From assembly GCF_035513255.1 (NCBI RefSeq), contig NZ_DATKCI010000015.1: a DNA stretch of 64,000 nt; one strand, given 5' to 3'. The position numbers and the translations under genes are program-made. Of the stretch, positions 15,026 through 26,830 are shown in pieces (position 1 is the first letter of the stretch; each line of letters starts with the position of its first letter). Source of the stretch: Piscinibacter sp. GTDB taxonomy: Bacteria; Pseudomonadota; Gammaproteobacteria; Burkholderiales; Burkholderiaceae_C. The notes below the pieces were generated by a model. That model searched no databases, was not told where the DNA came from, and worked only from the letters and a program-made list of their open reading frames with translations.

Positions 15026-15063
15026 GGCGCCAATACGGTGCCTCACCGCCCTTGCATGGGGCA
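15026..15063 (+). promoter_or_regulatory. Paired NtrC-like enhancer boxes
   Basis: GGCGCCAATACGGTGCC (15026-15042) and CGCCCTTGCATGGGGCA (15047-15063), centres 21 bp apart, resemble TGCACCA-N3-TGGTGCA, upstream of a sigma54 promoter. Confidence 0.6.
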
Positions 15064-15114
15064 TGCTTGAACGCCGGCGGCTCGTGCATCGATGCAATGA
15101 GGCGCCGTGTTCGG

Positions 15115-15130
15115 TGGCACCTGTCTTGCT
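15115..15130 (+). promoter_or_regulatory. sigma54 (-24/-12) promoter of the flavoprotein-cytochrome operon
   Basis: TGGCAC-CTGTC-TTGCT, exact consensus. Confidence 0.9.
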
Positions 15131-15169
15131 AAGACCTGCCCCAAGCGGCGTTCGAGACGCTGCGCGGAA

Positions 15170-15254
15170 GCCAACGGCGGCCTCGGCGCAGCGTGAACGT
15201 TCGGGGACAACGAAGTCCAGCCTGCCATCGCGGCGGGCTGGACTTTTTTCTTTT
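15170..15254 (+). promoter_or_regulatory. ANTAR (NasT) tandem-hairpin leader with overlapping intrinsic terminator
   Basis: P1 GCC-AACGGC-GGC (15170-15181), P2 GGAC-AACGAA-GTCC (15205-15218), both A1/G4 hexaloops; the P2 3' arm overlaps terminator AGTCCAGCCTGCC..GGCGGGCTGGACT-TTTTT. Confidence 0.9.
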
Positions 15255-15267
15255 GAGGAACGCGTCA

Positions 15268-17262
15268 GTGCTTGCAGAAGTGCGCATCGAGATCGCAGCG
15301 GTCGCGGCGCGGCCGGTGGCCGATGCGCCCGTCGTCGTCGTCGGCGCCGGGCCGGTCGGCGTGCGTTTCGCGCAGGAGCTGCGCCGGCGCTGTCCCCAGC
15401 AGCCGCTGGTGGTCTACGGCAGCGAGCCTTGGGCGCCGTACAACCGGGTGCAGCTCTCCGCCTTTCTGGCCGGCAAAACCGATTGGTCATCGCTGACGCA
15501 AGGCCTCGCGCTGCCCGAAGACCCGAACGCGGACGTTCGGCTGCATTGCGCGGTGACCGCCATCGATCGCGCGGGGCGGTGCGTACAGGATGCGAGCGGC
15601 CGCTGGCAGCCGTATGCCAGCCTCGTGCTGGCCATCGGATCGCGCGCTCGCGTGCCCGACATTCCCGGCATCGGTCAGGCCAACGTCTTCGTCTTCCGCG
15701 ACCTCAACGACACGCAGCGGCTTTTCGCGCGGCGCGCGCGCAGCCGACGCACGGTGGTGCTCGGCGGTGGCCTGCTGGGGCTCGAGGCGGCGCGCGCGAT
15801 GCAGCGGCTGAACACCGACGTGTGGGTGATCGAACATGCGCCGCGGCTGATGGCAAGCCAGCTCGACGACGAAGGCTCAGCGCTGCTGCGCGCGCAGGTG
15901 GAGGCGGCGGGCATCCACGTGCTGACCGACACGCGTGTCAAGGCGGTGCACGGGCACGGGCGCGTCGAGGGTGTCGCGCTGCGCGGCGGCGAGCGCGTCG
16001 ATTGCGACACGGTTGTCGTTGCTGCCGGCATCCAGCCGAACGTCGACCTCGCGGTCGCCTGCGGTCTGCCGGTGGGGCGCGGCATCCGCGTGGACGACGC
16101 GATGCGCACCGGCGATCCGCACATCTACGCGATCGGTGAATGCGCGGAACACCGCGGTGCGGTCTACGGCATCGTCGCACCCGGCTTCGAGCAGGCGTCG
16201 GTCGCCGTGCACAGCGTCGCCGGCGGACAGGCGCATTACGAAGGCTCGCTGGTCGCGACACGCCTGAAAGTGCTAGATCTGCCGGTGTTCTCGATGGGCC
16301 AGCTCGGCCTCGCGGGGGACGACGCCGAGCTGCGCAGCGTGTGTCACGACGCCGGCGCCGACGGTACACACCGCCGGATCGCGGTGCGGCGCGGCCGCCT
16401 CGTCGGCGCGCTCGCGGTCGGGGCTTGTCGCGAAATGAGCCGGCTGCAGGAGGCGGTGCTCGCACGCCGCCGCGTGATGCCCTGGCAACTTTGGCGGTTC
16501 CGCCGCAGCGGCTCGCTGTGGCCCGCGGAAGAAGCGACCAGCGTCGTGCATTGGCCCGGTGCCGCGATCGTCTGCAACTGCAACGGCGTCACGCGCGCGC
16601 AGCTGGGCGACGCGATGAAGGCCGGCTGCCGCAGCGTCGGCGAACTGGCGGCGTGCACCCGAGCGTCCACCGTCTGCGGTTCGTGCAAGCCGCTGCTGGC
16701 GGAACTCGCGGGGAGCGGCGCGGCGCCGGAGCCGGTGCGCGGCTGGCGCGGGCTCGCCGCCGTCGCATTGATCGCGTTCGCCTTCGCGCTCGCGATCGCC
16801 GTGCTGCCGGGGCTTCCCTACATGGACTCGGTGCAGGCCGCATGGCAGTGGGATCGCCTGTGGCGCGATAGCTTGTACAAGCAGGTGAGCGGATTCGGCG
16901 TGCTGGGCTTGACGGCGATCGGGCTGTTGCTGACGTTTCGCAAGCGCATCGCCCGCCTGCGCCTCGGGCATTTCGACACCTGGCGCTTCGCCCATGTCGC
17001 GATCGGCCTCGCGGTGCTCGCCGTGTTGTACGTGCACACCGGCGGGCGACTCGGCAGCCAGCTCGACGGCGCGCTGATGGTGGCGTTCACCGGCCTGATC
17101 CTCGTCGGCGGCGCGAGCGCCGCCGTCATCGCGTTCGAACACCGCCTGGCGCCGTCTCTCGTTCGGCGCTGGCGCAGCCGCAGCGTGTGGCTGCACATCC
17201 TTCTGTTCTGGCCCGTACCCGTCCTGCTCGGCTTTCACGTGCTCAAGAGCTACTACTTCTGA
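15268..17262 (+). CDS. NirB-like NAD(P)H:FAD oxidoreductase + BFD [2Fe-2S] domain fused to a ferric-reductase/NOX-like diheme-b membrane domain
   Basis: VGAGPVG, LGGGLLGLEAA, IYAIGEC; CNC...CGSC; five C-terminal TMs with two H-X13-H pairs; no siroheme/[4Fe-4S] domain. GTG start after GAGGA. Confidence 0.85.
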   Translation: MLAEVRIEIAAVAARPVADAPVVVVGAGPVGVRFAQELRRRCPQQPLVVYGSEPWAPYNRVQLSAFLAGKTDWSSLTQGLALPEDPNADVRLHCAVTAIDRAGRCVQDASGRWQPYASLVLAIGSRARVPDIPGIGQANVFVFRDLNDTQRLFARRARSRRTVVLGGGLLGLEAARAMQRLNTDVWVIEHAPRLMASQLDDEGSALLRAQVEAAGIHVLTDTRVKAVHGHGRVEGVALRGGERVDCDTVVVAAGIQPNVDLAVACGLPVGRGIRVDDAMRTGDPHIYAIGECAEHRGAVYGIVAPGFEQASVAVHSVAGGQAHYEGSLVATRLKVLDLPVFSMGQLGLAGDDAELRSVCHDAGADGTHRRIAVRRGRLVGALAVGACREMSRLQEAVLARRRVMPWQLWRFRRSGSLWPAEEATSVVHWPGAAIVCNCNGVTRAQLGDAMKAGCRSVGELAACTRASTVCGSCKPLLAELAGSGAAPEPVRGWRGLAAVALIAFAFALAIAVLPGLPYMDSVQAAWQWDRLWRDSLYKQVSGFGVLGLTAIGLLLTFRKRIARLRLGHFDTWRFAHVAIGLAVLAVLYVHTGGRLGSQLDGALMVAFTGLILVGGASAAVIAFEHRLAPSLVRRWRSRSVWLHILLFWPVPVLLGFHVLKSYYF

Positions 17263-17264
17263 GC

Positions 17265-18707
17265 ATGCGACGAGACCAACGACGACTCTGGATCACCTGG
17301 GGACTGCTGACCGTGATCATCGCCGCCACGTTCGCCACCGCGCTGCTGTGGAAGCGCTCGGCCACGCTGCCGGTGCTCGCGAGCGCACGCGCGGCCTTGG
17401 TGCCCGGCCAGACGACGCACGGCCACCACCAGATCGAACTCGCCTGCGAGAGCTGCCACAGCTCGCCGTTCGGCGGCGGCGCCGTGATGCAGGAGGCCTG
17501 CGTGAATTGCCACGGCGCGGCGCTGAAGGAAGGCGACGACAAGCACCCGGCGTCGAAGTTCGACGACCCGCGCAACGCGTTCCGCCTCGCGAAGATCGAT
17601 GCGCAACAGTGCATCGCCTGTCATGTCGAGCACCGTCCGGCCGCAACGCACGCGATGGGCCTCACGCAGCCGAAGGACTACTGCTTCCACTGCCACAGCG
17701 GCCCGGACGAGATGCCGGCCGACCACAAGGGCCTGCCTTTCGACGGCTGCATGGCGGCCGGCTGCCACAACTACCACGACAACCGGGCGCTGTACGAAGA
17801 CTTCCTGCTGAAGCACGCCGGCGAGCCGCCGTTGCTGGACAAGCGGCAGCTGCCCGAACGCGACCTGCTGACGGCGCTGCAGGAGTCGCTGGCCTACCCG
17901 CAGGCGCGTTATCCGGTCCAGCCGTTGGCGGCCGCGGCGGTCGACGCACCGCGGGGTCACCGTGCCGATCCCAAGATTCACGCCGACTGGCTGGGCACCG
18001 CGCATGCGAAGGCCGGCGTCAACTGCAGCGGCTGCCACGTCGTCGGCGCCACGGTGCCCGAAGGCGAACCGCGTCCGGCGAACGATGGGCAATGGGTCGA
18101 GCGCCCGGCCACGCCGCAGTCCTGCCAAGGGTGCCATGTGGTGGAGACGAAAGGCTTTCTTTCGGGCAAGCACGGCATGCGCTTGGCGCAGGGCCTGTCG
18201 CCGATGGCGCCCGCACAAGCCAGGCTGCCGATGCGCAGCGAGGCGGCGCACGCCGAGCTGAGCTGCACGAGCTGCCACACCGCGCACCGCTTCGACACGA
18301 AGGCGGCGGCGGTCGATTCCTGCCTCTCGTGCCATGACGACACACACTCGCTGGCCTACAAGCAGTCGCCGCACCGCGAGCTGTGGCGGCGTGAACTGCA
18401 GGGCGAGCTGCCGCCGGGCTCCGGTGTCACCTGCGCGAGCTGCCACATGCCGCGGGTCCGCGTGAGCACCGACGAAGGTTCGCGCATGGCCGTGCAGCAC
18501 AACCAGAACGACACGTTGCAGCCCAACGAAAAGATGATCCGGCCCGCCTGCATGAGCTGCCATGGCCTGGGCTTTTCCATCGATGCCTTGGCCGATCGCG
18601 CGCTGATCGATCGCAACTTCGCGGGCCAGCCGTCGCGCCACGTCGAAAGCATTGACATGGCGGTGCGCAAGGACCAGCAGTCATCGCGTGCACGCGAGCG
18701 GCCGTGA
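17265..18707 (+). CDS. Membrane-anchored multiheme cytochrome c (10 CxxCH + 1 CX4CH)
   Basis: N-terminal TM anchor; CESCH, CVNCH, CIACH, CFHCH, CMAAGCH, CSGCH, CQGCH, CTSCH, CLSCH, CASCH, CMSCH; ATG 2 nt after the upstream stop. Confidence 0.92.
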   Translation: MRRDQRRLWITWGLLTVIIAATFATALLWKRSATLPVLASARAALVPGQTTHGHHQIELACESCHSSPFGGGAVMQEACVNCHGAALKEGDDKHPASKFDDPRNAFRLAKIDAQQCIACHVEHRPAATHAMGLTQPKDYCFHCHSGPDEMPADHKGLPFDGCMAAGCHNYHDNRALYEDFLLKHAGEPPLLDKRQLPERDLLTALQESLAYPQARYPVQPLAAAAVDAPRGHRADPKIHADWLGTAHAKAGVNCSGCHVVGATVPEGEPRPANDGQWVERPATPQSCQGCHVVETKGFLSGKHGMRLAQGLSPMAPAQARLPMRSEAAHAELSCTSCHTAHRFDTKAAAVDSCLSCHDDTHSLAYKQSPHRELWRRELQGELPPGSGVTCASCHMPRVRVSTDEGSRMAVQHNQNDTLQPNEKMIRPACMSCHGLGFSIDALADRALIDRNFAGQPSRHVESIDMAVRKDQQSSRARERP

Positions 18708-18759
18708 CCGCCGGCATCGCGGCCGTCGCCATCCCTTTTTCAACCCCGAGGAGAGAACC

Positions 18760-19317
18760 ATGAAACCGAGTCGACATCTTCCGATCCTTCTGGCTGCGCT
18801 GGTTGCCGGCGGCACGGCCGCCGCCGAGGGCATATCGCCGCAGCAGATGACCGACGCGCTGCATGCCGTGATGGCCGCCGACCGCGCCGTCTACACCAAG
18901 CTGATCGTCAACCGGCTGCAGAACGAAGAGAAGCTCATCAAGGCCAGTGAGCACTGGAAGGACGACAAGGCCCTCGTGTTGCCGGCGCAGATGTTCCGCT
19001 ATGGCGCGGAGGAGGTGGCCAAGACCAACAAGAGCTTCAGCTACTCGCTGCTGTCGACCTGGCCGGTGAACAAGCAGAACGCGCCGCGCACACCGGCGGA
19101 GAAGGAGGGCCTCGCGTTCATCGAGAAGAACCCGACGAAGGCCTACTACAAGACGGAGGACCTCGGTGGCAAGAAGTTCTTCACGGCCGTCTACGCGGAC
19201 CGGGCCATCGCGCCGGCCTGCATCACCTGCCACAACCAGCACAAGGACAGCCCGCGCACCGACTTCAAGATCGGCGACACGATGGGCGGCGTGGTCATCC
19301 GCGTGCCGATGAACTGA
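18760..19317 (+). CDS. Secreted mono-heme c protein, Tll0287-like/DUF3365 family
   Basis: Sec signal (..GGTAAA/EG), LPAQM, PVNKQNAP, ACITCH near the C-terminus, GDTMGGVVIRVP; RBS GAGGAG. Confidence 0.8.
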   Translation: MKPSRHLPILLAALVAGGTAAAEGISPQQMTDALHAVMAADRAVYTKLIVNRLQNEEKLIKASEHWKDDKALVLPAQMFRYGAEEVAKTNKSFSYSLLSTWPVNKQNAPRTPAEKEGLAFIEKNPTKAYYKTEDLGGKKFFTAVYADRAIAPACITCHNQHKDSPRTDFKIGDTMGGVVIRVPMN

Positions 19318-19349
19318 GCATCCAAGCAACCCAGCCGAAAGGACACCTC

Positions 19350-19763
19350 ATGACACCGCAACAAGTCGCCCTGGTTCAGGCCTCGTGGCAAAAAATCGTG
19401 CCGATCAAGGACAAGGCCGCCGAGCTCTTCTACGGCAAGCTGTTCGAGATGGACCCCTCGCTGAAACCCCTGTTCAAGGGAGACATGGCCGACCAGGGCC
19501 GCAAGCTCACCGCGATGATCAACACCGCGGTCGTCAACCTGCACCAGCTCGACGGCATCGTCGGCGCCGTGCAGGACCTGGGCCGCCGCCACGTCGGCTA
19601 CGGCGTGAAGGACGAGCACTACGACACGGTCGGCGGCGCGCTGCTGTGGACCTTGGGTGCCGGCCTCGGCGACGCGTTCACCGACGACGTGAAGACCGCG
19701 TGGACGCAAACCTACGGCATTCTGGCCAGCGCGATGAAGGGGGCGGCGAAAGCGCCGGCCTGA
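19350..19763 (+). CDS. Single-domain bacterial globin (flavohemoglobin-like globin domain only)
   Basis: B10 Tyr (LFY), CD1 Phe (LFK), E7 Gln (DQGRKL), F8 His (RRHVGYGV); no reductase domain. Confidence 0.92.
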   Translation: MTPQQVALVQASWQKIVPIKDKAAELFYGKLFEMDPSLKPLFKGDMADQGRKLTAMINTAVVNLHQLDGIVGAVQDLGRRHVGYGVKDEHYDTVGGALLWTLGAGLGDAFTDDVKTAWTQTYGILASAMKGAAKAPA

Positions 19764-19799
19764 CATCGGTTTGGTGCGCCGCAGCACCGATGTGGTTCG
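19762..19799 (+). promoter_or_regulatory. Paired NtrC-like boxes upstream of the ABC transporter promoter
   Basis: GACATCGGTTTGGTGCG and AGCACCGATGTGGTTCG, centres 21 bp apart as in the first pair; the same bases also form a hairpin. Confidence 0.45.
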
Positions 19800-19859
19800 C
19801 AGAGCTCGGCGAGCGCGCGCATAGCGTGCGCCCGCCGGGCGACACAGCTGGAAACGGCG

Positions 19860-19875
19860 TGGCACGCGACCTGCT
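19860..19875 (+). promoter_or_regulatory. sigma54 promoter of the nitrate-type ABC operon
   Basis: TGGCAC-GCGAC-CTGCT (one mismatch at -12). Confidence 0.75.
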
Positions 19876-19885
19876 ATGACTCTCC

Positions 19886-20000
19886 CGAGACCACAGCATC
19901 GTGGTCTCGACAACTCACGAACATTGGGCAACGGCGTCCGATCGTTCAGTACGCAGCTTTTGCCGGTTGCGTGCTGGCGATCGGCCGCCGTTTGTCTTTT
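19886..20000 (+). promoter_or_regulatory. Second ANTAR-type leader with long terminator hairpin
   Basis: Hairpin CGAGACCAC-AGCATC-GTGGTCTCG, then GGGC-AACGGC-GTCC, whose loop pairs alternatively with CGCCGTTTGTC-TTTT in a ~70-nt stem. Confidence 0.7.
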
Positions 20001-20030
20001 CCCGAATCGATTTGCACCAGGAGATCCTCG

Positions 20031-21404
20031 ATGACGTCCGCCCGCTCCCGACTGAACCGTCGCCGCTTCCTCGCCAACGCGACCGCACTCGCCGGCGCCT
20101 CGACGATCGCCCTGCCGGGATTCGCGCAGAAGAAGGATCGCCCCGAGAAGGAGGTGCTGAAGTTCGGCTTCATCAAGCTGACCGACTGCGTGCCGCTGAT
20201 CATCGCCTACGAGAAGAAGTACTTCGACGACGAGGGGCTGTTCGTCACGCTCGAAGCGCAGGCCAACTGGAAGGTGCTGCTCGACCGCGTGATCGACGGC
20301 CAGCTCGACGGCGCGCACATGCTCGCCGGCCAGCCGCTGGGCGCGAGCGTGGGCTTCGGCACCAAGGCCGACGTGATCACCGCCTTCAGCATGGACCTGA
20401 ACGGCAACGCGATCACCGTCTCGAACGCGGTGTGGAAGGAGATGAAGCCGCTGCTCCCGATGGAAGACGGCCGCGTGAAGCACCCGATCAAGGCCGACGT
20501 GCTGAAGAAGGTCGTCGACAAGTACAAGCAGCAGGGCAAGCCGTTCAAGATGGGCATGGTGTTCCCGGTCTCCACGCACAACTACGAGCTGCGCTACTGG
20601 CTAGCCGCCGGCGGACTGAAGCCCGGCTACTACACGGCCGGCGACATCACCGGCACGTCGGATGCCGACGTGCTGCTGTCGGTCACGCCGCCGCCGCAGA
20701 TGCCCGCCACGCTGGAGGCCGGCACGATCAACGGCTACTGCGTCGGCGAGCCGTGGAACCAGCAGGCGGTGTTCAAGGGCATCGGCGTGCCCGTGATCAC
20801 CGACTACGAGATCTGGAAGAACAACCCCGAGAAGGTCTTCGGCGTCACGCGCGGCTGGGCCGAACAGAACCCGAAGACGCACATCGCCGTCGTCAAGGCG
20901 CTGATCCGCGCCTGCATGTGGCTCGATGCCAGCATGGCCAACCGCGTCGAGGCGGTGAAGCTGCTGTCCAAGTCGAACTACGTCGGCGCCGACGAAGAGG
21001 TTATCGGCAACAGCATGACCGGCACCTTCGAATACGAGAAGGGCGACAAGCGGCCGCTGCCGGACTTCAACGTCTTCTTCCGCTACCACGCGACCTATCC
21101 GTTCTACAGCGATGCGATCTGGTACCTGACGCAGATGCGTCGCTGGGGGCAGATCACCGAGAACAAGCCCGACAGCTGGTACTTCGAGACCGCGAAGAAG
21201 GTCTACCGGCCGGAGATCTACATGCAGGCGGCCAAGGCGCTCGTGGCCGAAGGCAAGGCGAAGGAGAGCGACTTCCCGATGAAGAGCGACGGCTACCGCG
21301 GCCCGCAGGAAGGATTCATCGACGGCATCGTCTACGACGCGAAGAAGCCCAACGACTACCTGCGCAAATTCAAGATCGGCCTGAAGGCGGACAAGAGCGT
21401 CTGA
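20031..21404 (+). CDS. nrtA: Nitrate/nitrite-type ABC transporter substrate-binding protein (NrtA/CmpA family)
   Basis: Tat signal RRRFL; [37 protein letters not shown]. Confidence 0.88.
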
Positions 21405-21438
21405 CGTGCCTGCGGCACATGCGGCAAAGGAGCCTGCA

Positions 21439-22407
21439 ATGGAACAAGTGATGAAGCTGTTTGGCGGCCTCGCGGCCAGCGACCCTCGCGAGCTCGCACG
21501 TTCGCTGATGTTGAACCTCGGCGTGCCGGTGATCGCGTTCGCGCTGTTCCTCTCGCTGTGGGCATTCGGTGCGTCGCGCGTGCAGACCAGCCTCGGCGCC
21601 GTGCCCGGGCCGGCGCAGGTGCTGGCCCAGGCGAAGGCGCTGTTCGACGATCACGTCGAGGAGCGTGCCAAGCGCGCCGAGTTCTACGAGCGGCAGGCGC
21701 AGCGCAACCGCGAGCGGCTGGCGGAAGATCCGAACGCCGAAGTGCGCGTGTTCAACTGGACCGGCAAGCCGACTTACCTGGACCAGATCGTCACGAGCCT
21801 GATCACGGTGTTCACCGGCTTCCTGATCGCCACCGCCGTCGCCGTGCCGGTGGGCATTCTCTGCGGCTCGTCGCGCATCGTGCAGGCCGCGCTGAACCCG
21901 ATGGTGCAGGTGTTCCGGCCGGTGTCGCCGCTGGCCTGGCTGCCGATCGTGACGCTGATCGTCAGCGCGGTCTACGTGACCGCCGGCGAGCCGATGTTCC
22001 AGAAGTCGTTCCTGATCTCGGCCATCACCGTGACGCTGTGTTCGCTGTGGACCACGCTGCTGAACACCGCAATCGGCGTCACGTCGGTCGACAAGGACCT
22101 GGTCAACGTCGGCCGCGTGCTGCAACTGCCGTGGACGACCCGCGTGCGCAAGATCGTGCTGCCGTCGGCACTGCCCTACATCTTCACCGGCATGCGGCTG
22201 TCGCTCGGCGTCGGCTGGATGGTGCTGATCGCCGCGGAGATGCTCGCGCAGAACCCGGGGCTCGGCAAGTTCGTCTGGGACGAATTCCAGAACGGCAGCT
22301 CCGACTCGCTGAGCCGCATCATGGTCGCGGTGTTCACGATCGGCATCATCGGCTTTCTGCTCGACCGGCTGATGCTCGGCTTGCAGCACCTGGCGTCGCG
22401 CGCATGA
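21439..22407 (+). CDS. nrtB: Nitrate-type ABC transporter permease
   Basis: [33 protein letters not shown]; long periplasmic insertion after TM1. Confidence 0.88.
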
Positions 22408-24236
22408 ACGGGCTGTTGAAAAGCATGAACAACGCAGCCACCGTGCCCCTGGTCGATGCGAGCGCCGCTGCCGCAGCGCCGCGGATCGCGGCCGTTCCCG
22501 ATGCGGCGGCGCTCGAGTTGCGCGGCGTCGCCAAACGCTACGGCAGCGGCCGTGCTGCCACCGAGGTGCTGCACGACATCAACCTGCGCATCGCGCCGGG
22601 TGAGTTTGTTGCGATCGTCGGCTTTTCCGGCAGCGGCAAGACGACGCTCGTGAACCTGCTCGCGGGTCTCGCGACGGCCGACGACGGCGAGGTGCTCAAG
22701 CAAGGTCAACCGATCCGCGGACCGGGGCCGGACCGCGGCATCGTCTTTCAGAGCTATTCGCTGATGCCGTGGCTCACCGTGCGCCAGAACGTCGCGCTGG
22801 CGGTGGACTGCGTGTACGCCGGCGAGTCGGCCCGGGCGCGCGCCGAGCGGGTCAAGCATTACGTGGCGATGGTCGGCCTGAGCGCCGCCATCGACAAGAA
22901 GCCGGCGCAGCTGTCCGGCGGCATGCGCCAGCGCGTGTCGGTGGCGCGTGCGCTTGCGACCAACCCCGACGTGCTGCTGCTCGACGAGCCGCTGTCGGCG
23001 CTCGATGCGCTCACGCGCGCGAACCTGCAGGACGAGATCACCCGCATCTGGAGCGAGGAGAAGAAGACCGTTCTGCTGATCACCAACGACGTCGACGAGG
23101 CGCTGATCCTCGCGGACCGCATCATCCCGCTGAACCCGGGGCCGAAGGCGACCTTGGGACCCGCGTTCGAGGTCGACATCGCCAGGCCGCGCGACCGGCG
23201 CGAAATGAACCACGATGCCCGCTTCAAGGCGCTGCGCGGCGAGATCACGCAGTACCTGATCGACGTGGCGCACCGGCGCGAGGCGGGAACCAGCGCCAAG
23301 GTGATCCAGCTGCCGGTGCTCGTGCCGCGCGTGGAGGGCCGCAAGCTGCCGTCCCTCGCGTCGCTGGCGGGCATGCGGCATGCGGCGCAGCTCGAGGCGA
23401 TGGCGCAACGGGAGTCGGGCGCCGCGAAGACGGCCGAGCATGCGAAGTTGTCCGACGCGCGCTTTGTCGAGTTCTCGCAGGTCGTCAAGGTCTACCCGAC
23501 GCCGCGCGGCCCGCAGACCGTCGTCGACGGCTTCGACCTGAAGATGCGCAAAGGCGAGTTCGTCTCGGTGATCGGCCCTTCGGGCTGCGGCAAGTCGACG
23601 GTTCTGTCGATGGTCGCGGGGTTGACCGACATCACCGAGGGCGGCGTCATCCTCGACGGCCGCGAGATCGCCGGCGCCGCGCCGGACCGCGGCCTCGTGT
23701 TCCAGTCGCCGAGCCTCGTCCCCTGGCTCAGCGCGTACGAGAACGTGATGCTCGGCGTGCAACGTGTGTTCGCCGACGCGTCAGCGGCGCAGCGCCGCAG
23801 CACCGTCGAGTACTACCTGTCGCGGGTCGGCCTGGCCGATGCGATGCACAAGCGCGCCGGCGAGCTGTCCAACGGCATGAAGCAGCGCGTGGGCATCGCG
23901 CGCGCATTCGCGCTGAACCCCAAGTTGCTGCTGCTCGACGAGCCGTTCGGCATGCTGGACTCGCTGACGCGCTGGGACCTGCAGGAAGTGCTGATGGAGG
24001 TGTGGGCGCGCAACCAGGTCACGGCGATCATGGTCACGCACGACGTCGACGAAGCGATCCTGCTGGCCGATCGTGTGGTGATGATGACCAACGGCCCGAA
24101 CGCGAAGATCGGCAAGGTGATGGACGTGACGCTGCCGCGCCCGCGTTCGCGCGCCGCGCTGCTGGCGCATCCGCGCTACTACGAGTTGCGCGAGGAGCTG
24201 ATCACGTTCCTGGAAGACTGCGGCCGCCAGCATTGA
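22404..24236 (+). CDS. Fused tandem ABC ATPase (NrtC/NrtD-like double NBD)
   Basis: Two full NBDs in one frame: [24 protein letters not shown] and [24 protein letters not shown]. Confidence 0.9.
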
Positions 24237-24331
24237 GTGGGCCGGATGACGATCCGTCGGCGCATCGAACGGGCGCCGCTCCCGGATTGCATCCGGGCTG
24301 CTGATATCGAGTAGCCCGGATGAAATCCGGG
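24237..24331. repeat. REP cluster: degenerate (+) copy, (-) copy and (+) copy between convergent genes
   Basis: GTGGGCCGGATGACGATCCG (24237), CCCGGATTGCATCCGGGCTGC (24281-24301), GTAGCCCGGATGAAATCCGGG (24311-24331). Confidence 0.85.
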
Positions 24332-24364
24332 GATCGGTGCGTCGGACGAACTACCGCAACGAAG

Positions 24365-25567
24365 TCACTCGCGCCGGCGGATCTTGAATGCGTCGGCATA
24401 GACCGCCGGCTCGGTTCCGTCCCAGACCACGCCGTCCATCAGACGGCTCGAGCGCATCGGGCTGGTCGGCACCGGAATGTTCAGCGCCGACGCCGCCTCG
24501 CGGTACAGCGCGATCTGGTTGATCTGAGACGCGACGCCGAGGTAGTCGGGGTGTTCCTTCAGGAGGCCCCATCGTTTCTGCTGCGTCAGGAACCACATGC
24601 CGTCCGACAGGTACGGGAAGTTCACTTCGCCGTCGCGGAAGAAGCTCATGTGGTGCGGGTCTTCCCAGGTCCGCCCGAGGCCGTTGGTGTAGCAGCCGAC
24701 GATGCGCTCGAGGATCACGTCGACCGAGGTGTCGACGAAAGGCTTGGCGGCGATCGTCTCGGCCATCTTGCGCCGGTTCGCCGCGGTCGCGTCGATCCAG
24801 CGGCTCGCCTCGAGCACCGCCATCACGACCGCGCGACAGGTGTTCGGGTAGCGCCGGACGTAGTCGGCCGTGCTCGCGACGACCTTTTCCGGGTGGTTGC
24901 GCCAGATGTCCTGCGAGCTTGCGGCATGCACCGACACGCCGTCGAGAATGCCGCGGTGGTTCCACGGCTCGCCGACCGAAAAACCGTCCATGTTGCCGGC
25001 GCGTGCGTTGGCGACCATCTGCGGCGGCGGCACGACGATGGTCTTCACGTCGGCGAACGGGTCGATGCCGGCCGAGGCGAGCCAGTAGTACAGCCACATC
25101 GCGTGCGTCCCGGTGGGGAAGGTTTGCGCGAAGGTGTAATCGCGCCGCTCGCTGCGCAGCAACACGGCCAGCGATCCGAGATCGACGGCCCCCTTGTCGG
25201 CGAGGCGCCGCGACAGCGACAGCCCCTGGCCGTTGTTGTTGATCGTCATCAGCACGGCCATGTCCTTCTTCGGGCCGCCGACACCGAGGTGAACGCCGTA
25301 GACGAGGCCGTACAGCACATGCGCCATGTCGATGTCGCCGCGCACCAGTTTGTCGCGCACGCCGGCCCAGGATGCTTCCTTCGTGGGCACGATGCGGATG
25401 CCGTGCTTCCGGTCGAAACCGAGCACCGACGCCATCACCACCGAGGCGCAGTCGGTCAGCGGCATGAAGCCGATGCGAACCTCCTCGCGCTCGGGCTTGT
25501 CGCTGCCGGCGAGCCGCAGGATGGGGCGGGGCGGTCGGCCATGGGGTCCGGGGACGGTGTGGTTCAT
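24365..25567 (-). CDS. nasS: Cytoplasmic nitrate/nitrite sensor NasS
   Basis: NrtA-like fold (IGFMPLTDCAS, FPTGTHAMWLYYWL, VGEPWN) but no signal peptide; directly downstream of an ANTAR regulator. Confidence 0.85.
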   Translation of the reverse strand: MNHTVPGPHGRPPRPILRLAGSDKPEREEVRIGFMPLTDCASVVMASVLGFDRKHGIRIVPTKEASWAGVRDKLVRGDIDMAHVLYGLVYGVHLGVGGPKKDMAVLMTINNNGQGLSLSRRLADKGAVDLGSLAVLLRSERRDYTFAQTFPTGTHAMWLYYWLASAGIDPFADVKTIVVPPPQMVANARAGNMDGFSVGEPWNHRGILDGVSVHAASSQDIWRNHPEKVVASTADYVRRYPNTCRAVVMAVLEASRWIDATAANRRKMAETIAAKPFVDTSVDVILERIVGCYTNGLGRTWEDPHHMSFFRDGEVNFPYLSDGMWFLTQQKRWGLLKEHPDYLGVASQINQIALYREAASALNIPVPTSPMRSSRLMDGVVWDGTEPAVYADAFKIRRRE

Positions 25568-25605
25568 GCGAAATCGAGCCTGACAGGGGAGGTGGAGTGC
25601 ATCGG

Positions 25606-26238
25606 TCAGCCCAGCAACTCGGCCACGTCGACGACGCGCTGCGCGACGTCGGCGATCTTCAGCCCCTTGTCCATCGCGGTCTTGCGCAGCCGCGCGTAGG
25701 CCTCGGGTTCGCCGATGTCGTGGCGCTTCATCAGCAGCCCCTTCGCTCGGTCGATCAGCTTGCGGTCGTTGAGCTGGTTGCGCGCCTCGGCGAGCGCCTG
25801 CAGCAGCGACTCCTGGTGCTGGAAGCGTGCCATCGCGACGTCGAGCACCGGCCGGATTCGCTCGGGTGCCAGGCCGGCGACCACGTAGGCCGTCACGCCG
25901 GCGGCGATTGCGTCACGCACGTGGGACGTGTCGTTGTCCTCGGTGAACAGCACGATCGGCCTGCGGGCGTCGCGCGTGGCCATCACGACGTGCTCCAGCG
26001 TGTCGCGCGCCTGGCTCTCGGCATCGATGATGATCATGTCGGGGCCGATCTGCGCGAGCCGGTCGGGCAGGAAGACGTCGGCCGGCAGCACGGCGACGAT
26101 GTTGTAGCCATGCTCGAGCATGCCGATGCGCAGGCTGCGCGAGCGCTCCGCCGCCACCTGCGCCTCGGGGTCGGCAGGGTCGGGGGCAAGCGTCTCGGGC
26201 GCGACGATGACGATGCGCAGGGCCTGGGCCGAGGTCAT
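25606..26238 (-). CDS. nasT: ANTAR-domain antiterminator NasT
   Basis: Pseudo-receiver (PDMIIIDAES) + ANTAR (DRKLIDRAKGLLM..EPEAYARLRKTAMD); start ATG 26238. Confidence 0.92.
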   Translation of the reverse strand: MTSAQALRIVIVAPETLAPDPADPEAQVAAERSRSLRIGMLEHGYNIVAVLPADVFLPDRLAQIGPDMIIIDAESQARDTLEHVVMATRDARRPIVLFTEDNDTSHVRDAIAAGVTAYVVAGLAPERIRPVLDVAMARFQHQESLLQALAEARNQLNDRKLIDRAKGLLMKRHDIGEPEAYARLRKTAMDKGLKIADVAQRVVDVAELLG

Positions 26239-26250
26239 GGCGACCGGCGA

Positions 26251-26266
26251 AGCAACATCTGCGCCA
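26251..26266 (-). promoter_or_regulatory. sigma54 promoter of nasTS
   Basis: Minus strand TGGCGC-AGATG-TTGCT. Confidence 0.8.
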
Positions 26267-26293
26267 TTGCGTCGTCCAAGAACGACCGGGCGC

Positions 26294-26317
26294 AAAAAAG
26301 CCCGCTCGCGGCGGGCT
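26294..26317 (-). terminator. Intrinsic terminator of the small orphan gene
   Basis: Minus strand AGCCCGC-cgcga-GCGGGCT-TTTTT. Confidence 0.85.
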
Positions 26318-26336
26318 CTCTCTGTTTGGGGTGGGG

Positions 26337-26621
26337 TCAGCGGCCCGGGTGGGACGACATGGCTCGCCGCAGCCACCCGCCCAGCGGGCGCAACGACCAG
26401 AACTGCGAATCGGTGGCGACCGCCTCGCGCTCGATGAGGAGGTCGCGGGCTTCCAGCATCTCGATGAAGTGGCGAACCTCGTAGCGCTTGAGTCCGCTCA
26501 AGTCCGCCAGTTGGGCGAGCGTGACATGGCGGTGCGACATGTCGCTCGCCATGCGGCGATAGGCGGTTCGGTCGAAGGGGGACGTCAACTCCGGCCACGC
26601 GCTGAGACGGTACTCTTTCAT
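26337..26621 (-). CDS. Small hypothetical protein, possible winged HTH (94 aa)
   Basis: MKEYRLSAWPEL...TLAQLADLSGLKRYEVRHFIEML; GGAG RBS, followed by a strong terminator. Confidence 0.7.
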   Translation of the reverse strand: MKEYRLSAWPELTSPFDRTAYRRMASDMSHRHVTLAQLADLSGLKRYEVRHFIEMLEARDLLIEREAVATDSQFWSLRPLGGWLRRAMSSHPGR

Positions 26622-26830
26622 GGCTCCAACGACTTTCTTGGTTGTGGCGGTTGCTTCGGGGCAACCGTTCTCGGGAAACGCAGGGTAGTTCCTGTTCTTT
26701 GGAACGTGAAGGGAATTCTTACCGATACCGGGTAATCCCTGAGTAGAAACGTGTGTCGAGTTGTGATTGGCGCGACGCGGCGCCGGAAGCCTGACGCCGC
26801 TGACGACAGGCGCCACCGTAAACTTGGTCG

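Follow-up and report, generated by a model that had tools for sequence, protein, structure and literature searches.

We analysed a stretch of 64,000 nucleotides from a Piscinibacter sp. genome (assembly GCF_035513255.1, contig NZ_DATKCI010000015.1), called the window below, in which an operon for one flavoprotein and three haem proteins adjoins genes for nitrate uptake and its regulation. Genes were called by third-position G+C (GC3 frame analysis; G+C content of the window 63–71%) and named by Pfam and NCBIfam profile scans of the open reading frames (ORFs) of the window. Between 15.0 and 26.3 kb they form three transcription units, two on the + strand and one on the − strand. The scans agreed with the inventory given in an initial annotation made from the sequence alone: a flavoprotein–membrane fusion, an 11-haem cytochrome c, a Tll0287-like protein, a globin, a nitrate (nrt) importer and nasS–nasT. 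The first unit, hereafter the haem operon, holds four genes:

15268–17262 (+): flavoprotein–membrane fusion, with Pyr_redox_2, Rubredoxin_C and Fer2_BFD domains followed by a five-helix membrane domain
17265–18707 (+): membrane-anchored 11-haem cytochrome c, with ten CXXCH motifs and one CX4CH
18760–19317 (+): secreted Tll0287/DUF3365 (sCache_haem) c-type haem protein, PF11845, with a single CXXCH
19350–19763 (+): cytoplasmic single-domain globin of the Hmp/Vgb/Cgb type, with TyrB10, GlnE7 and HisF8

We read these four genes as one operon because neither a further + strand terminator nor a sigma70-like promoter was found between 15268 and 19763.

The first ~480 residues of the fusion protein comprise Pyr_redox_2 (2e-57), Rubredoxin_C and a BFD-type [2Fe-2S] domain (Fer2_BFD, 6e-10) with the motif CNC...CGSC. 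Some 460 of these residues, covering the flavin adenine dinucleotide (FAD), NAD(P)H and BFD [2Fe-2S] parts, align end to end with the N-terminal half of the nitrite reductase NirB (TIGR02374, 1e-115). The match extends over model positions 1–464 of 794 only, and its 388 bits lie below the family cut-off of 578. The sirohaem/[4Fe-4S] domains NIR_SIR and NIR_SIR_ferr gave no Pfam match in the fusion protein. Where NirB has its sirohaem/[4Fe-4S] half, the fusion has instead a hydrophobic C-terminal domain of ~180 amino acids (residues 505–689) without any Pfam match.

An AlphaFold2 (AF2) model of this C-terminal domain has five transmembrane helices (predicted local distance difference test, pLDDT, 84.7). 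Helices 3 and 5 of the model carry four His residues as two H-x13-H pairs (H96/H110 and H163/H177), which are invariant in an 11-sequence alignment and at least 90% conserved across 87 sequences. The two helices are preceded by the Arg/Lys-rich loops FRKRIARLR and RRWRSRS. By the positive-inside rule, both should therefore start in the cytoplasm and run parallel, and in the model each pair would place one His near the inner and one near the outer face of the membrane. Two His pairs arranged in this way hold the two stacked b haems of NOX and ferric-reductase domains. We looked for two pairs spaced 12–14 residues apart on two parallel transmembrane helices and found this arrangement in the membrane domain. 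From the His pattern alone, the domain is predicted to bind two b haems.

We tried ferric reductase domain (FRD), cytochrome b561 and DUF4405 proteins as homologues of the membrane domain and rejected them, as it gave neither a match to a hidden Markov model nor a significant hhalign score. In six-frame searches of the genome, PF01794, PF01292 and PF14358 matched other loci and not the membrane domain; the only PF01794 match in the genome was an MsrQ-like gene on contig C228. Aligned by hhalign with the MsrQ-like and b561 proteins of the genome, the domain reached probabilities of 0.2% and 0.3%, respectively. Its W-x3-H-x13-H stretch can be aligned with the 'RRWQLLH' motif of MsrQ, with a score at chance level. 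A Foldseek search of the PDB with the model returned generic helical bundles only (best E = 0.26). Among 1.84 billion representative proteins, we found 920 relatives of the membrane domain at E ≤ 0.001, 385 of them at E ≤ 1e-30. It was C-terminal in all of the best 150 of the 920 matches, and the full-length proteins among these had 640–720 amino acids. The membrane domain thus appears to be a family of its own; it would work like a flavocytochrome b, yet membership of that family could not be demonstrated.

The combination of a cytoplasmic pyridine-nucleotide flavoprotein with a membrane domain bearing two His pairs, which we infer to transfer electrons outwards without quinone, is shared with NOX, FRE and bacterial NOX and with Fre–MsrQ–MsrP. 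Unlike NOX and FRE, the fusion has a dehydrogenase of NirB/NorW (Pyr_redox_2) type, which includes a [2Fe-2S] cluster, in place of one of the FNR type, and its five-helix membrane domain has no detectable homology to PF01794 or any solved fold. The acceptor would also differ, a multihaem cytochrome c being proposed here in place of O2, Fe(III) or MsrP.

This cytochrome is encoded immediately downstream, its ATG lying 2 nt after the stop codon of the fusion gene. It has an N-terminal membrane helix, and its one CX4CH site reads CMAAGCH. Among 93 aligned cytochromes, the 22 haem-binding Cys, the 11 motif His and exactly 11 further His were at least 95% conserved. This count fits eleven bis-His haems and would suit a wire. 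As NrfA shows, however, catalysis may involve a conserved distal His, and the His count is therefore compatible with a catalytic pocket as well as with its absence. An AF2 model built on a 10-sequence alignment was unusable (pLDDT 46.6).

In a PDB profile search, two di-haem modules (haems 6–7 and 10–11) matched the haem 4–5 module of NrfA and octahaem nitrite reductase (ONR), with E values from 3e-9 to 1e-8. The cytochrome would share with the NrfA/ONR/HAO superfamily its periplasmic location and its link to nitrogen oxides (N-oxides). These matches raise the possibility of a periplasmic reductase that converts nitrite or hydroxylamine to ammonium, as a second NAD(P)H-driven route beside NirBD that would be assimilatory or resemble dissimilatory nitrate reduction to ammonium. 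The conserved HGMR, Tyr and K-M-x-R residues might make up a catalytic pocket, and some databases name homologues 'NrfA' or 'cytochrome c552 nitrite reductase' (others are called 'cytochrome c3 family' or 'hypothetical'). We consider the NrfA-type names unreliable, as they stem from weak matches to Cytochrom_C552 below its threshold (22.6 bits vs 24.1 for the present protein); NF008339 was likewise far below its cut-off (23.9 vs 595 bits). Moreover, the catalytic haem-1 module of NrfA and ONR gave no match in the PDB profile search, and CXXCK was absent from the alignments of 10 and of 93 cytochromes. The protein also differs from NrfA and ONR by its 11 haems and its CX4CH site, and it would receive electrons from NAD(P)H by way of a fused flavocytochrome, not from quinol by way of NrfH or NrfBCD. 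Escherichia coli NrfA also detoxifies nitric oxide (NO) in the periplasm.

The third protein belongs to PF11845 (69.2 bits, cut-off 24.1), with the haem-binding motif CITCH. Its assignment to the Tll0287 family rests on Pfam; a phmmer search of the PDB for Tll0287 gave nothing relevant. Like Tll0287 and other sCache_haem proteins, it has a CXXCH motif and a stand-alone secreted form (10.64898/2026.02.01.703092). Tll0287 and the Pseudomonas putida protein have Cys/His axial ligation. No Cys outside CXXCH was conserved among 86 relatives of the present protein, 48 of which hold only the two motif Cys, so that the Cys axial ligand is missing here; conserved His and Met residues are available as ligands instead. 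A further difference from those proteins is that the gene always follows that of the 11-haem cytochrome. According to a 2026 preprint, stand-alone DUF3365 members with Cys ligation act as redox proteins, whereas tight NO binding is found in members whose sixth ligand is labile (10.64898/2026.02.01.703092).

The globin has 137 amino acids and no signal peptide, and it matches the globin part of the NO-inducible flavohaemoprotein (8e-21). Besides the globin fold, it has the TyrB10, GlnE7 and HisF8 residues of the Hmp/Vgb/Cgb/Bjgb class, which are conserved in 67 globins of related loci. By analogy, the operon globin is most likely an NO dioxygenase. Both Hmp-type globins and truncated haemoglobins are known as NO dioxygenases.

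The closest characterised counterpart we found is the NasT-controlled narK–bjgb–flp–nasC operon of Bradyrhizobium, in which Flp and Bjgb remove the NO that the assimilatory nitrate reductase forms (PMC4724949). Both systems place a TyrB10/GlnE7-type single-domain globin beside an NAD(P)H flavoprotein resembling the N-terminal half of NirB, and both are embedded in nitrate-assimilation genes with NasS–NasT antitermination, which for the haem operon is predicted from its leaders. In contrast to the soluble Flp, the flavoprotein of the haem operon is fused to a putative di-haem membrane domain. The 11-haem cytochrome c and the haem-Cache protein have no counterpart in the Bradyrhizobium operon, and nasC is absent from the haem operon.

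We then surveyed relatives of the operon. All ten full-length relatives found with the fusion protein as query had the order fusion, cytochrome, Tll0287-like protein, to which we refer as the module. With the cytochrome as query, at least 3,598 proteins were found at E ≤ 1e-10 among 8,000 candidates, and a search of species genomes gave relatives in at least 574 of them. We compared the neighbourhoods of 91 loci from many phyla, 51 of which have at least 5 kb on both sides (full-flank loci). The membrane domain was encoded directly upstream of the cytochrome in 87/91 loci and the Tll0287-like gene came next in 85/91, the exceptions lying mostly at contig ends. A monohaem cytochrome c followed in 47/91. 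A globin was present in 75/91 loci (44 of the 51 full-flank loci); 67 were Hmp-type and eight were truncated haemoglobins, seven of which come with an FNR-like (Fer2–FAD–NAD) reductase of their own.

These data bear on the idea that the flavoprotein serves cytoplasmic partners (the globin, perhaps also NasA) and that the membrane domain and the c haems do no more than anchor it, buffer electrons or pass surplus ones to oxygen or periplasmic oxidants, N-oxides not being converted in the periplasm. Such a role would agree with the soluble relative Flp of Bradyrhizobium, which serves NasC and Bjgb (PMC4724949), with the possible bis-His ligation of all 11 haems, and with the ready formation of superoxide by DUF3365 haem proteins in the presence of O2 (10.64898/2026.02.01.703092). 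The fixed gene order, however, argues that the periplasmic part is central, and the reductases that accompany the truncated haemoglobins suggest that the fusion is not simply a globin reductase. We therefore regard this explanation as quite unlikely.

The regulatory signals and the remaining genes of the region were as follows:

15027–15041 (+): NtrC-like half-palindrome GCGCCAATACGGTGC, one mismatch, 88 bp upstream of the first sigma54 promoter
15115–15130 (+): predicted sigma54 (−24/−12) promoter TGGCACCTGTCTTGCT of the haem operon, by pattern match
15150–15255 (+): predicted ANTAR antitermination leader of the haem operon, with two hexaloop hairpins and a terminator
19784–19798 (+): NtrC-like site GCACCGATGTGGTTC, one mismatch, 76 bp upstream of the second sigma54 promoter
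19860–19875 (+): predicted sigma54 promoter TGGCACGCGACCTGCT of nrtABCD, by pattern match
19885–20005 (+): nrtA leader, with a non-canonical loop (AGCAUC), a canonical loop (AACGGC) and an alternative terminator
20031–21404 (+): nrtA, periplasmic nitrate/nitrite-binding protein (NMT1_2, 2e-99)
21406–22407 (+): nrtB, permease (TIGR01183, 3e-46, 158 bits, under the cut-off of 209)
22404–24236 (+): fused nrtC/nrtD, ATPase with two ATP-binding cassette (ABC) domains (TIGR01184, 604 bits, above cut-off)
24365–25567 (−): nasS, cytoplasmic NrtA-like nitrate/nitrite sensor (NMT1_2, 2e-92)
25606–26238 (−): nasT, ANTAR RNA-binding antiterminator (ANTAR, 9e-22)
26251–26266 (−): sigma54-like motif TGGCGCAGATGTTGCT before nasT, ending 12 nt before its ATG

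The importer has all its parts (an NrtA-type binding protein, an NrtB permease and an NrtC/D ATPase), and nrtB and nrtC/D share an ATGA overlap. The match of NasS to NMT1_2 lacks the signal sequence region.

The initial annotation had placed the region under nitrate-assimilation-type control, on the strength of three sigma54 promoters, pairs of NtrC-like boxes and two ANTAR leaders. The pattern TGGCRC-N5-YTGCT, which was fitted to the sigma54 sites after they had been seen, has exactly three matches in the 64 kb (0.25 expected; 0/100 shuffles reach three). Each lies directly upstream of one transcription unit in the right orientation, which bears out the three promoters. That of nasT is the weakest and is doubtful, because its transcript would be almost leaderless. 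The NtrC pattern GCACC-N5-GGTGC with at most one mismatch occurred 15 times in the window (6.65 expected), while the variant with an N6 spacer was no better than chance (91 matches vs 82 expected). One NtrC-like site precedes each + strand promoter, but no convincing second box was found at either, so that single sites stand where pairs had been claimed.

Both predicted ANTAR leaders were found again. Leader 1 is a textbook case, with tandem A1/G4 hexaloops of which the second competes with an intrinsic terminator. Its hairpins P1 (loop AACGGC, 15173–15178) and P2 (loop AACGAA, 15209–15214) are followed by a 15-pair terminator stem (15212–15246), which overlaps P2 through a common 3′ arm and ends in the T-run T6CT4. 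The minimum free energy of its fold is −70.8 kcal/mol (z = −5.96). Leader 2, that of nrtA, pairs its one canonical loop with a non-canonical one and has its alternative terminator at 19975–19990, followed by a T-run (z = −7.81). With a sigma54 promoter, an NtrC-like site and an ANTAR leader in place, the proposed control of the haem operon by sigma54/NtrC and NasS–NasT is supported as a prediction from sequence signals.

Directly 3′ of the globin stop codon lies a palindrome (19766–19798; CATCGGT..GTGC gccgca GCAC CGATG) without a T-run. It contains the NtrC-like site of the nrtA promoter and may bind a protein rather than terminate transcription. At the other end of the region, a 95-amino-acid ORF without a Pfam match (26335–26622, −) lies between tsaD and nasT; its own strong terminator (26287–26317) is just upstream of the sigma54-like motif of nasT.

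Related loci were inspected for leaders of the same kind, counting stems of at least four pairs. Dual A1/G4 hexaloop hairpins with a T-run preceded the flavoprotein gene in at least 21 of 77 loci, compared with 0–1 of 77 in four controls. NasT-type control therefore seems to be a recurrent trait of the module family.

As the haem operon has no sirohaem/[4Fe-4S] domain, NirD or molybdoenzyme, it had been proposed to replace the sirohaem nitrite reductase. The absence holds within the operon and the surrounding island but not for the genome as a whole. In a six-frame profile search of the assembly (6.06 Mb, 99% complete), we found a canonical cluster on contig C213 with genes for an MFS transporter, a Ser/Thr kinase, NirB, NirD and NasA. 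This NirB has 819 amino acids including NIR_SIR and scores above the TIGR02374 cut-off (934 bits); NasA is a 927-amino-acid molybdoenzyme with a BFD tail. On contig C157 we found a gene for a cobA/cysG-type methyltransferase and a sulfite-reductase-like gene beside DUF934. All gene types whose absence from the genome would have agreed with a replacement (nirB, nirD, nasA and a gene of the cobA/cysG type) are thus present, and nirBD and the module share a cluster in seven related loci.

The replacement hypothesis also predicted an anti-correlation of the module with NirB. Among 400 evenly drawn genomes of the class, 24 (~6%) had the module (cytochrome at E ≤ 1e-30) and 154 had NirB above cut-off. 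NirB was found in 21/24 (88%) of the module genomes and in 133/376 of those without the module (odds ratio 12.8; Fisher p = 4.8e-7), which is the opposite of the prediction. We conclude that the module accompanies the sirohaem nitrite reductase rather than standing in for it.

Of the two purposes first considered, ammonium production for assimilation thereby loses most of its rationale, since NirB is present in the genome and co-occurs with the module, whereas the NO-dioxygenase-type globin, being almost always present, speaks for detoxification beside assimilation. The same results weaken the case for the ammonium-forming nitrite or hydroxylamine reductase introduced above. Nitrate control and the adjoining nitrate/nitrite importer would suit such an enzyme; however, most module genomes already have NirB, and the near-obligate globin would be left unexplained. 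On balance we think it unlikely.

A flavohaemoglobin Hmp was not found in the genome, so that the operon globin is the only Hmp-type globin found there. We considered an anti-correlation of the module with Hmp as well and rejected it, the difference (0/24 module genomes vs 23/376 others) not being significant (p = 0.38). The genome search found no NirK and no convincing NirS. Contig C70 (34800–36029) carries a fifth, divergent gene of the haem-copper oxidase superfamily (PF00115, 191 bits, ~463 amino acids) that matched no NCBIfam family at E ≤ 1e-10 and may encode a NorB-like NO reductase.

Beside nirBD–nasA, at C213:12805-14349 (L004:2806-4350, −), lies an ORF of 514 amino acids with an ANTAR domain at residues 221–273 and a PilJ/NIT-like domain at residues 396–489. 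In NasR the order is the reverse, NIT preceding ANTAR. Together with nasT, this ORF would give the genome two ANTAR regulators, one for each nitrate cluster.

The initial annotation had further expected the module to co-occur with nrt and nasST across bacteria, and this was borne out in part. At least one of nrt, nasT, nirB and nasA was located within 10 kb in 26/51 full-flank loci (nrt genes in 24, nasT in 18), but about half of the loci had no such neighbour. This half would be explained if the acceptor had nothing to do with N-oxides, being Fe(III), another metal or an oxidized periplasmic metabolite, and if regulation by nitrogen status were merely shared in some lineages. Multihaem wires are typical of metal reduction, and weak Pfam/NCBIfam matches of the MtrC/DmsE type were obtained. 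Against this stand the cross-phylum linkage to nrt, nasT and nirBD, the ANTAR leaders, the NO-type globins and the strong co-occurrence with NirB. In addition, no conserved outer-membrane porin or cytochrome partner was found near the module. An acceptor unrelated to N-oxides is, in our estimation, very unlikely.

Carriers of the module belong to Burkholderiales, many Gammaproteobacteria, Hyphomicrobiaceae, Verrucomicrobiota and Planctomycetota, and further to Nitrospirota, Terriglobia, Binatia, Myxococcota and Poribacteria. Many are lithotrophs or methylotrophs (Thiobacillus, Gallionellaceae, Thiohalomonadales, Acidiferrobacterales, Chromatiaceae, Methylococcales, Methylophilaceae and Nitrospirota). 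In such organisms, electrons could in principle flow inwards, from periplasmic cytochrome c pools to the globin or to nitrate-assimilation enzymes, sparing NAD(P)H. Inward transfer would, however, oppose the membrane potential, the flavoprotein retains its full NAD(P)H and FAD domains, and the module is also carried by heterotrophs (Catenovulum, Cellvibrionaceae, Hahella, Cupriavidus and the Piscinibacter genome studied here). We consider inward flow highly improbable.

Taken together, the data fit the architecture assumed from the start, namely an NAD(P)H flavoprotein in the cytoplasm, a di-haem domain in the membrane and haem proteins in the periplasm, as judged by the domains and the His pattern. 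We propose that the module is a quinone-independent conduit from NAD(P)H to the periplasm which, together with a cytoplasmic NO dioxygenase, removes NO or other N-oxides that arise from nitrate assimilation. NAD(P)H would reduce the FAD of the NirB-like flavoprotein, and electrons would pass to the BFD-type [2Fe-2S] cluster and then across the membrane via two b haems, one near each face, held by the four His. They would enter the membrane-anchored 11-haem cytochrome c and reach the Tll0287-like haem-c protein, as well as the monohaem cytochrome c present in about half of the relatives. The globin would stay in the cytoplasm as an NO dioxygenase that is re-reduced by the same flavoprotein, as Bjgb is by Flp. 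NO, and perhaps hydroxylamine or excess nitrite, would be by-products of assimilation by NasA and NirBD, which the globin would remove in the cytoplasm and the haem chain in the periplasm.

We favour N-oxide by-products as substrates because of the regulatory context in the window, because nrt, nasT, nirBD and nasA recur beside the module, and because globins of two families are near-obligate. That the membrane domain binds haem, that electrons flow outwards and what they reduce are all inferred, and the substrate is the weak point. Accordingly, we give the proposal as a whole an even chance of being right and place more confidence in the conduit architecture taken by itself.

Several observations weigh against the proposal. 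It does not explain why NO removal should need 11 periplasmic haems. The 11 extra His equal the haems in number, and we could not point to any haem whose coordination site is open. No known haem-b family was matched by the membrane domain, so that its haem binding is read from the His pattern. The stand-alone DUF3365 proteins that have been studied bind NO weakly (10.64898/2026.02.01.703092), although they possess the Cys ligand that is missing here. Nitrate-assimilation genes are absent from the vicinity of about half of the loci, and the lack of Hmp in module genomes does not reach significance. Finally, the proposal is built on sequence comparison.

In a variant that goes further, the whole would be an unrecognized, quinone-independent and membrane-spanning NAD(P)H:nitrogen-oxide oxidoreductase. 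Its NirB-derived flavoprotein would be joined to a di-haem-b conduit of a new, non-homologous type, and the cytochrome and haem-Cache protein driven by this conduit would reduce NO, hydroxylamine or nitrite in the periplasm. We regard this variant as tentative: possible, though somewhat doubtful. If it were true, it would represent a new branch of the nitrogen cycle in hundreds of species, tied to nitrate assimilation.

Full-text literature searches, whose coverage was not exhaustive, found no published description of the operon, in agreement with the view that it is not a characterized pathway. By analogy, the module would combine transmembrane electron export of the flavocytochrome type with an NO defence like that of Flp and Bjgb. 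Nitrate assimilation is usually drawn as an importer, NasA and NirBD, with the release of NO as a side issue for Hmp or Nor. To the nitrate-assimilation regulon, the module would contribute at least 13 haems and a route by which electrons cross the membrane directly from NAD(P)H. Should the chain reduce NO or other N-oxides, estimates of the release of NO and nitrous oxide from aerobic nitrate-assimilating soil and marine bacteria would change. The proposal, if correct, would also provide a second case of flavocytochrome-type electron export, apparently convergent with NOX, and would give the stand-alone DUF3365 haem proteins a function. The question is directly testable, as carriers are in culture (those Cupriavidus necator strains that have the operon, Noviherbaspirillum sedimenti, Catenovulum agarivorans DS-2 and Hahella ganghwensis DSM 17046).

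The polynucleotide phosphorylase (PNPase) of the genome is 92% identical to that of a Piscinibacter metagenome-assembled genome and 90% identical to that of a Rhizobacter one. The window sequence itself was present only in DNA runs of soil metagenomes. In one wastewater metatranscriptome, contigs more than 99% identical to a Thiobacillus-like copy of the module and to its nrt genes occurred at similar depth. Since carry-over of DNA is possible in that data set, these contigs are weak evidence for transcription of the module in nature.

Some of the related loci had additional features. In Cupriavidus necator (L086:12568-19323) and Noviherbaspirillum sedimenti (L089:12843-19628), a complete ccmABCDEFGHI operon directly follows the module. 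These lineages normally use System II for cytochrome c maturation, and the ccm (System I) operon may serve specifically to mature the 11-haem protein or its CX4CH site. A metagenome-assembled genome (MAG) of Thiohalomonadales (L161:2810-12400) has two tandem copies of the module, the first followed by a truncated haemoglobin gene and the second by nrtABC, and in a Pseudomonadota MAG (L103:4537-5900) three consecutive globin matches come after the module. In a Bremerella (Planctomycetota) MAG (L013:4992-9718), the module is preceded by nrtABCD and by genes for a GAF protein, a 4Fe-4S/DmsC-like membrane protein and a molybdopterin oxidoreductase of 741 amino acids, which suggests that this cluster encodes a membrane-bound nitrate reductase of the assimilatory type.

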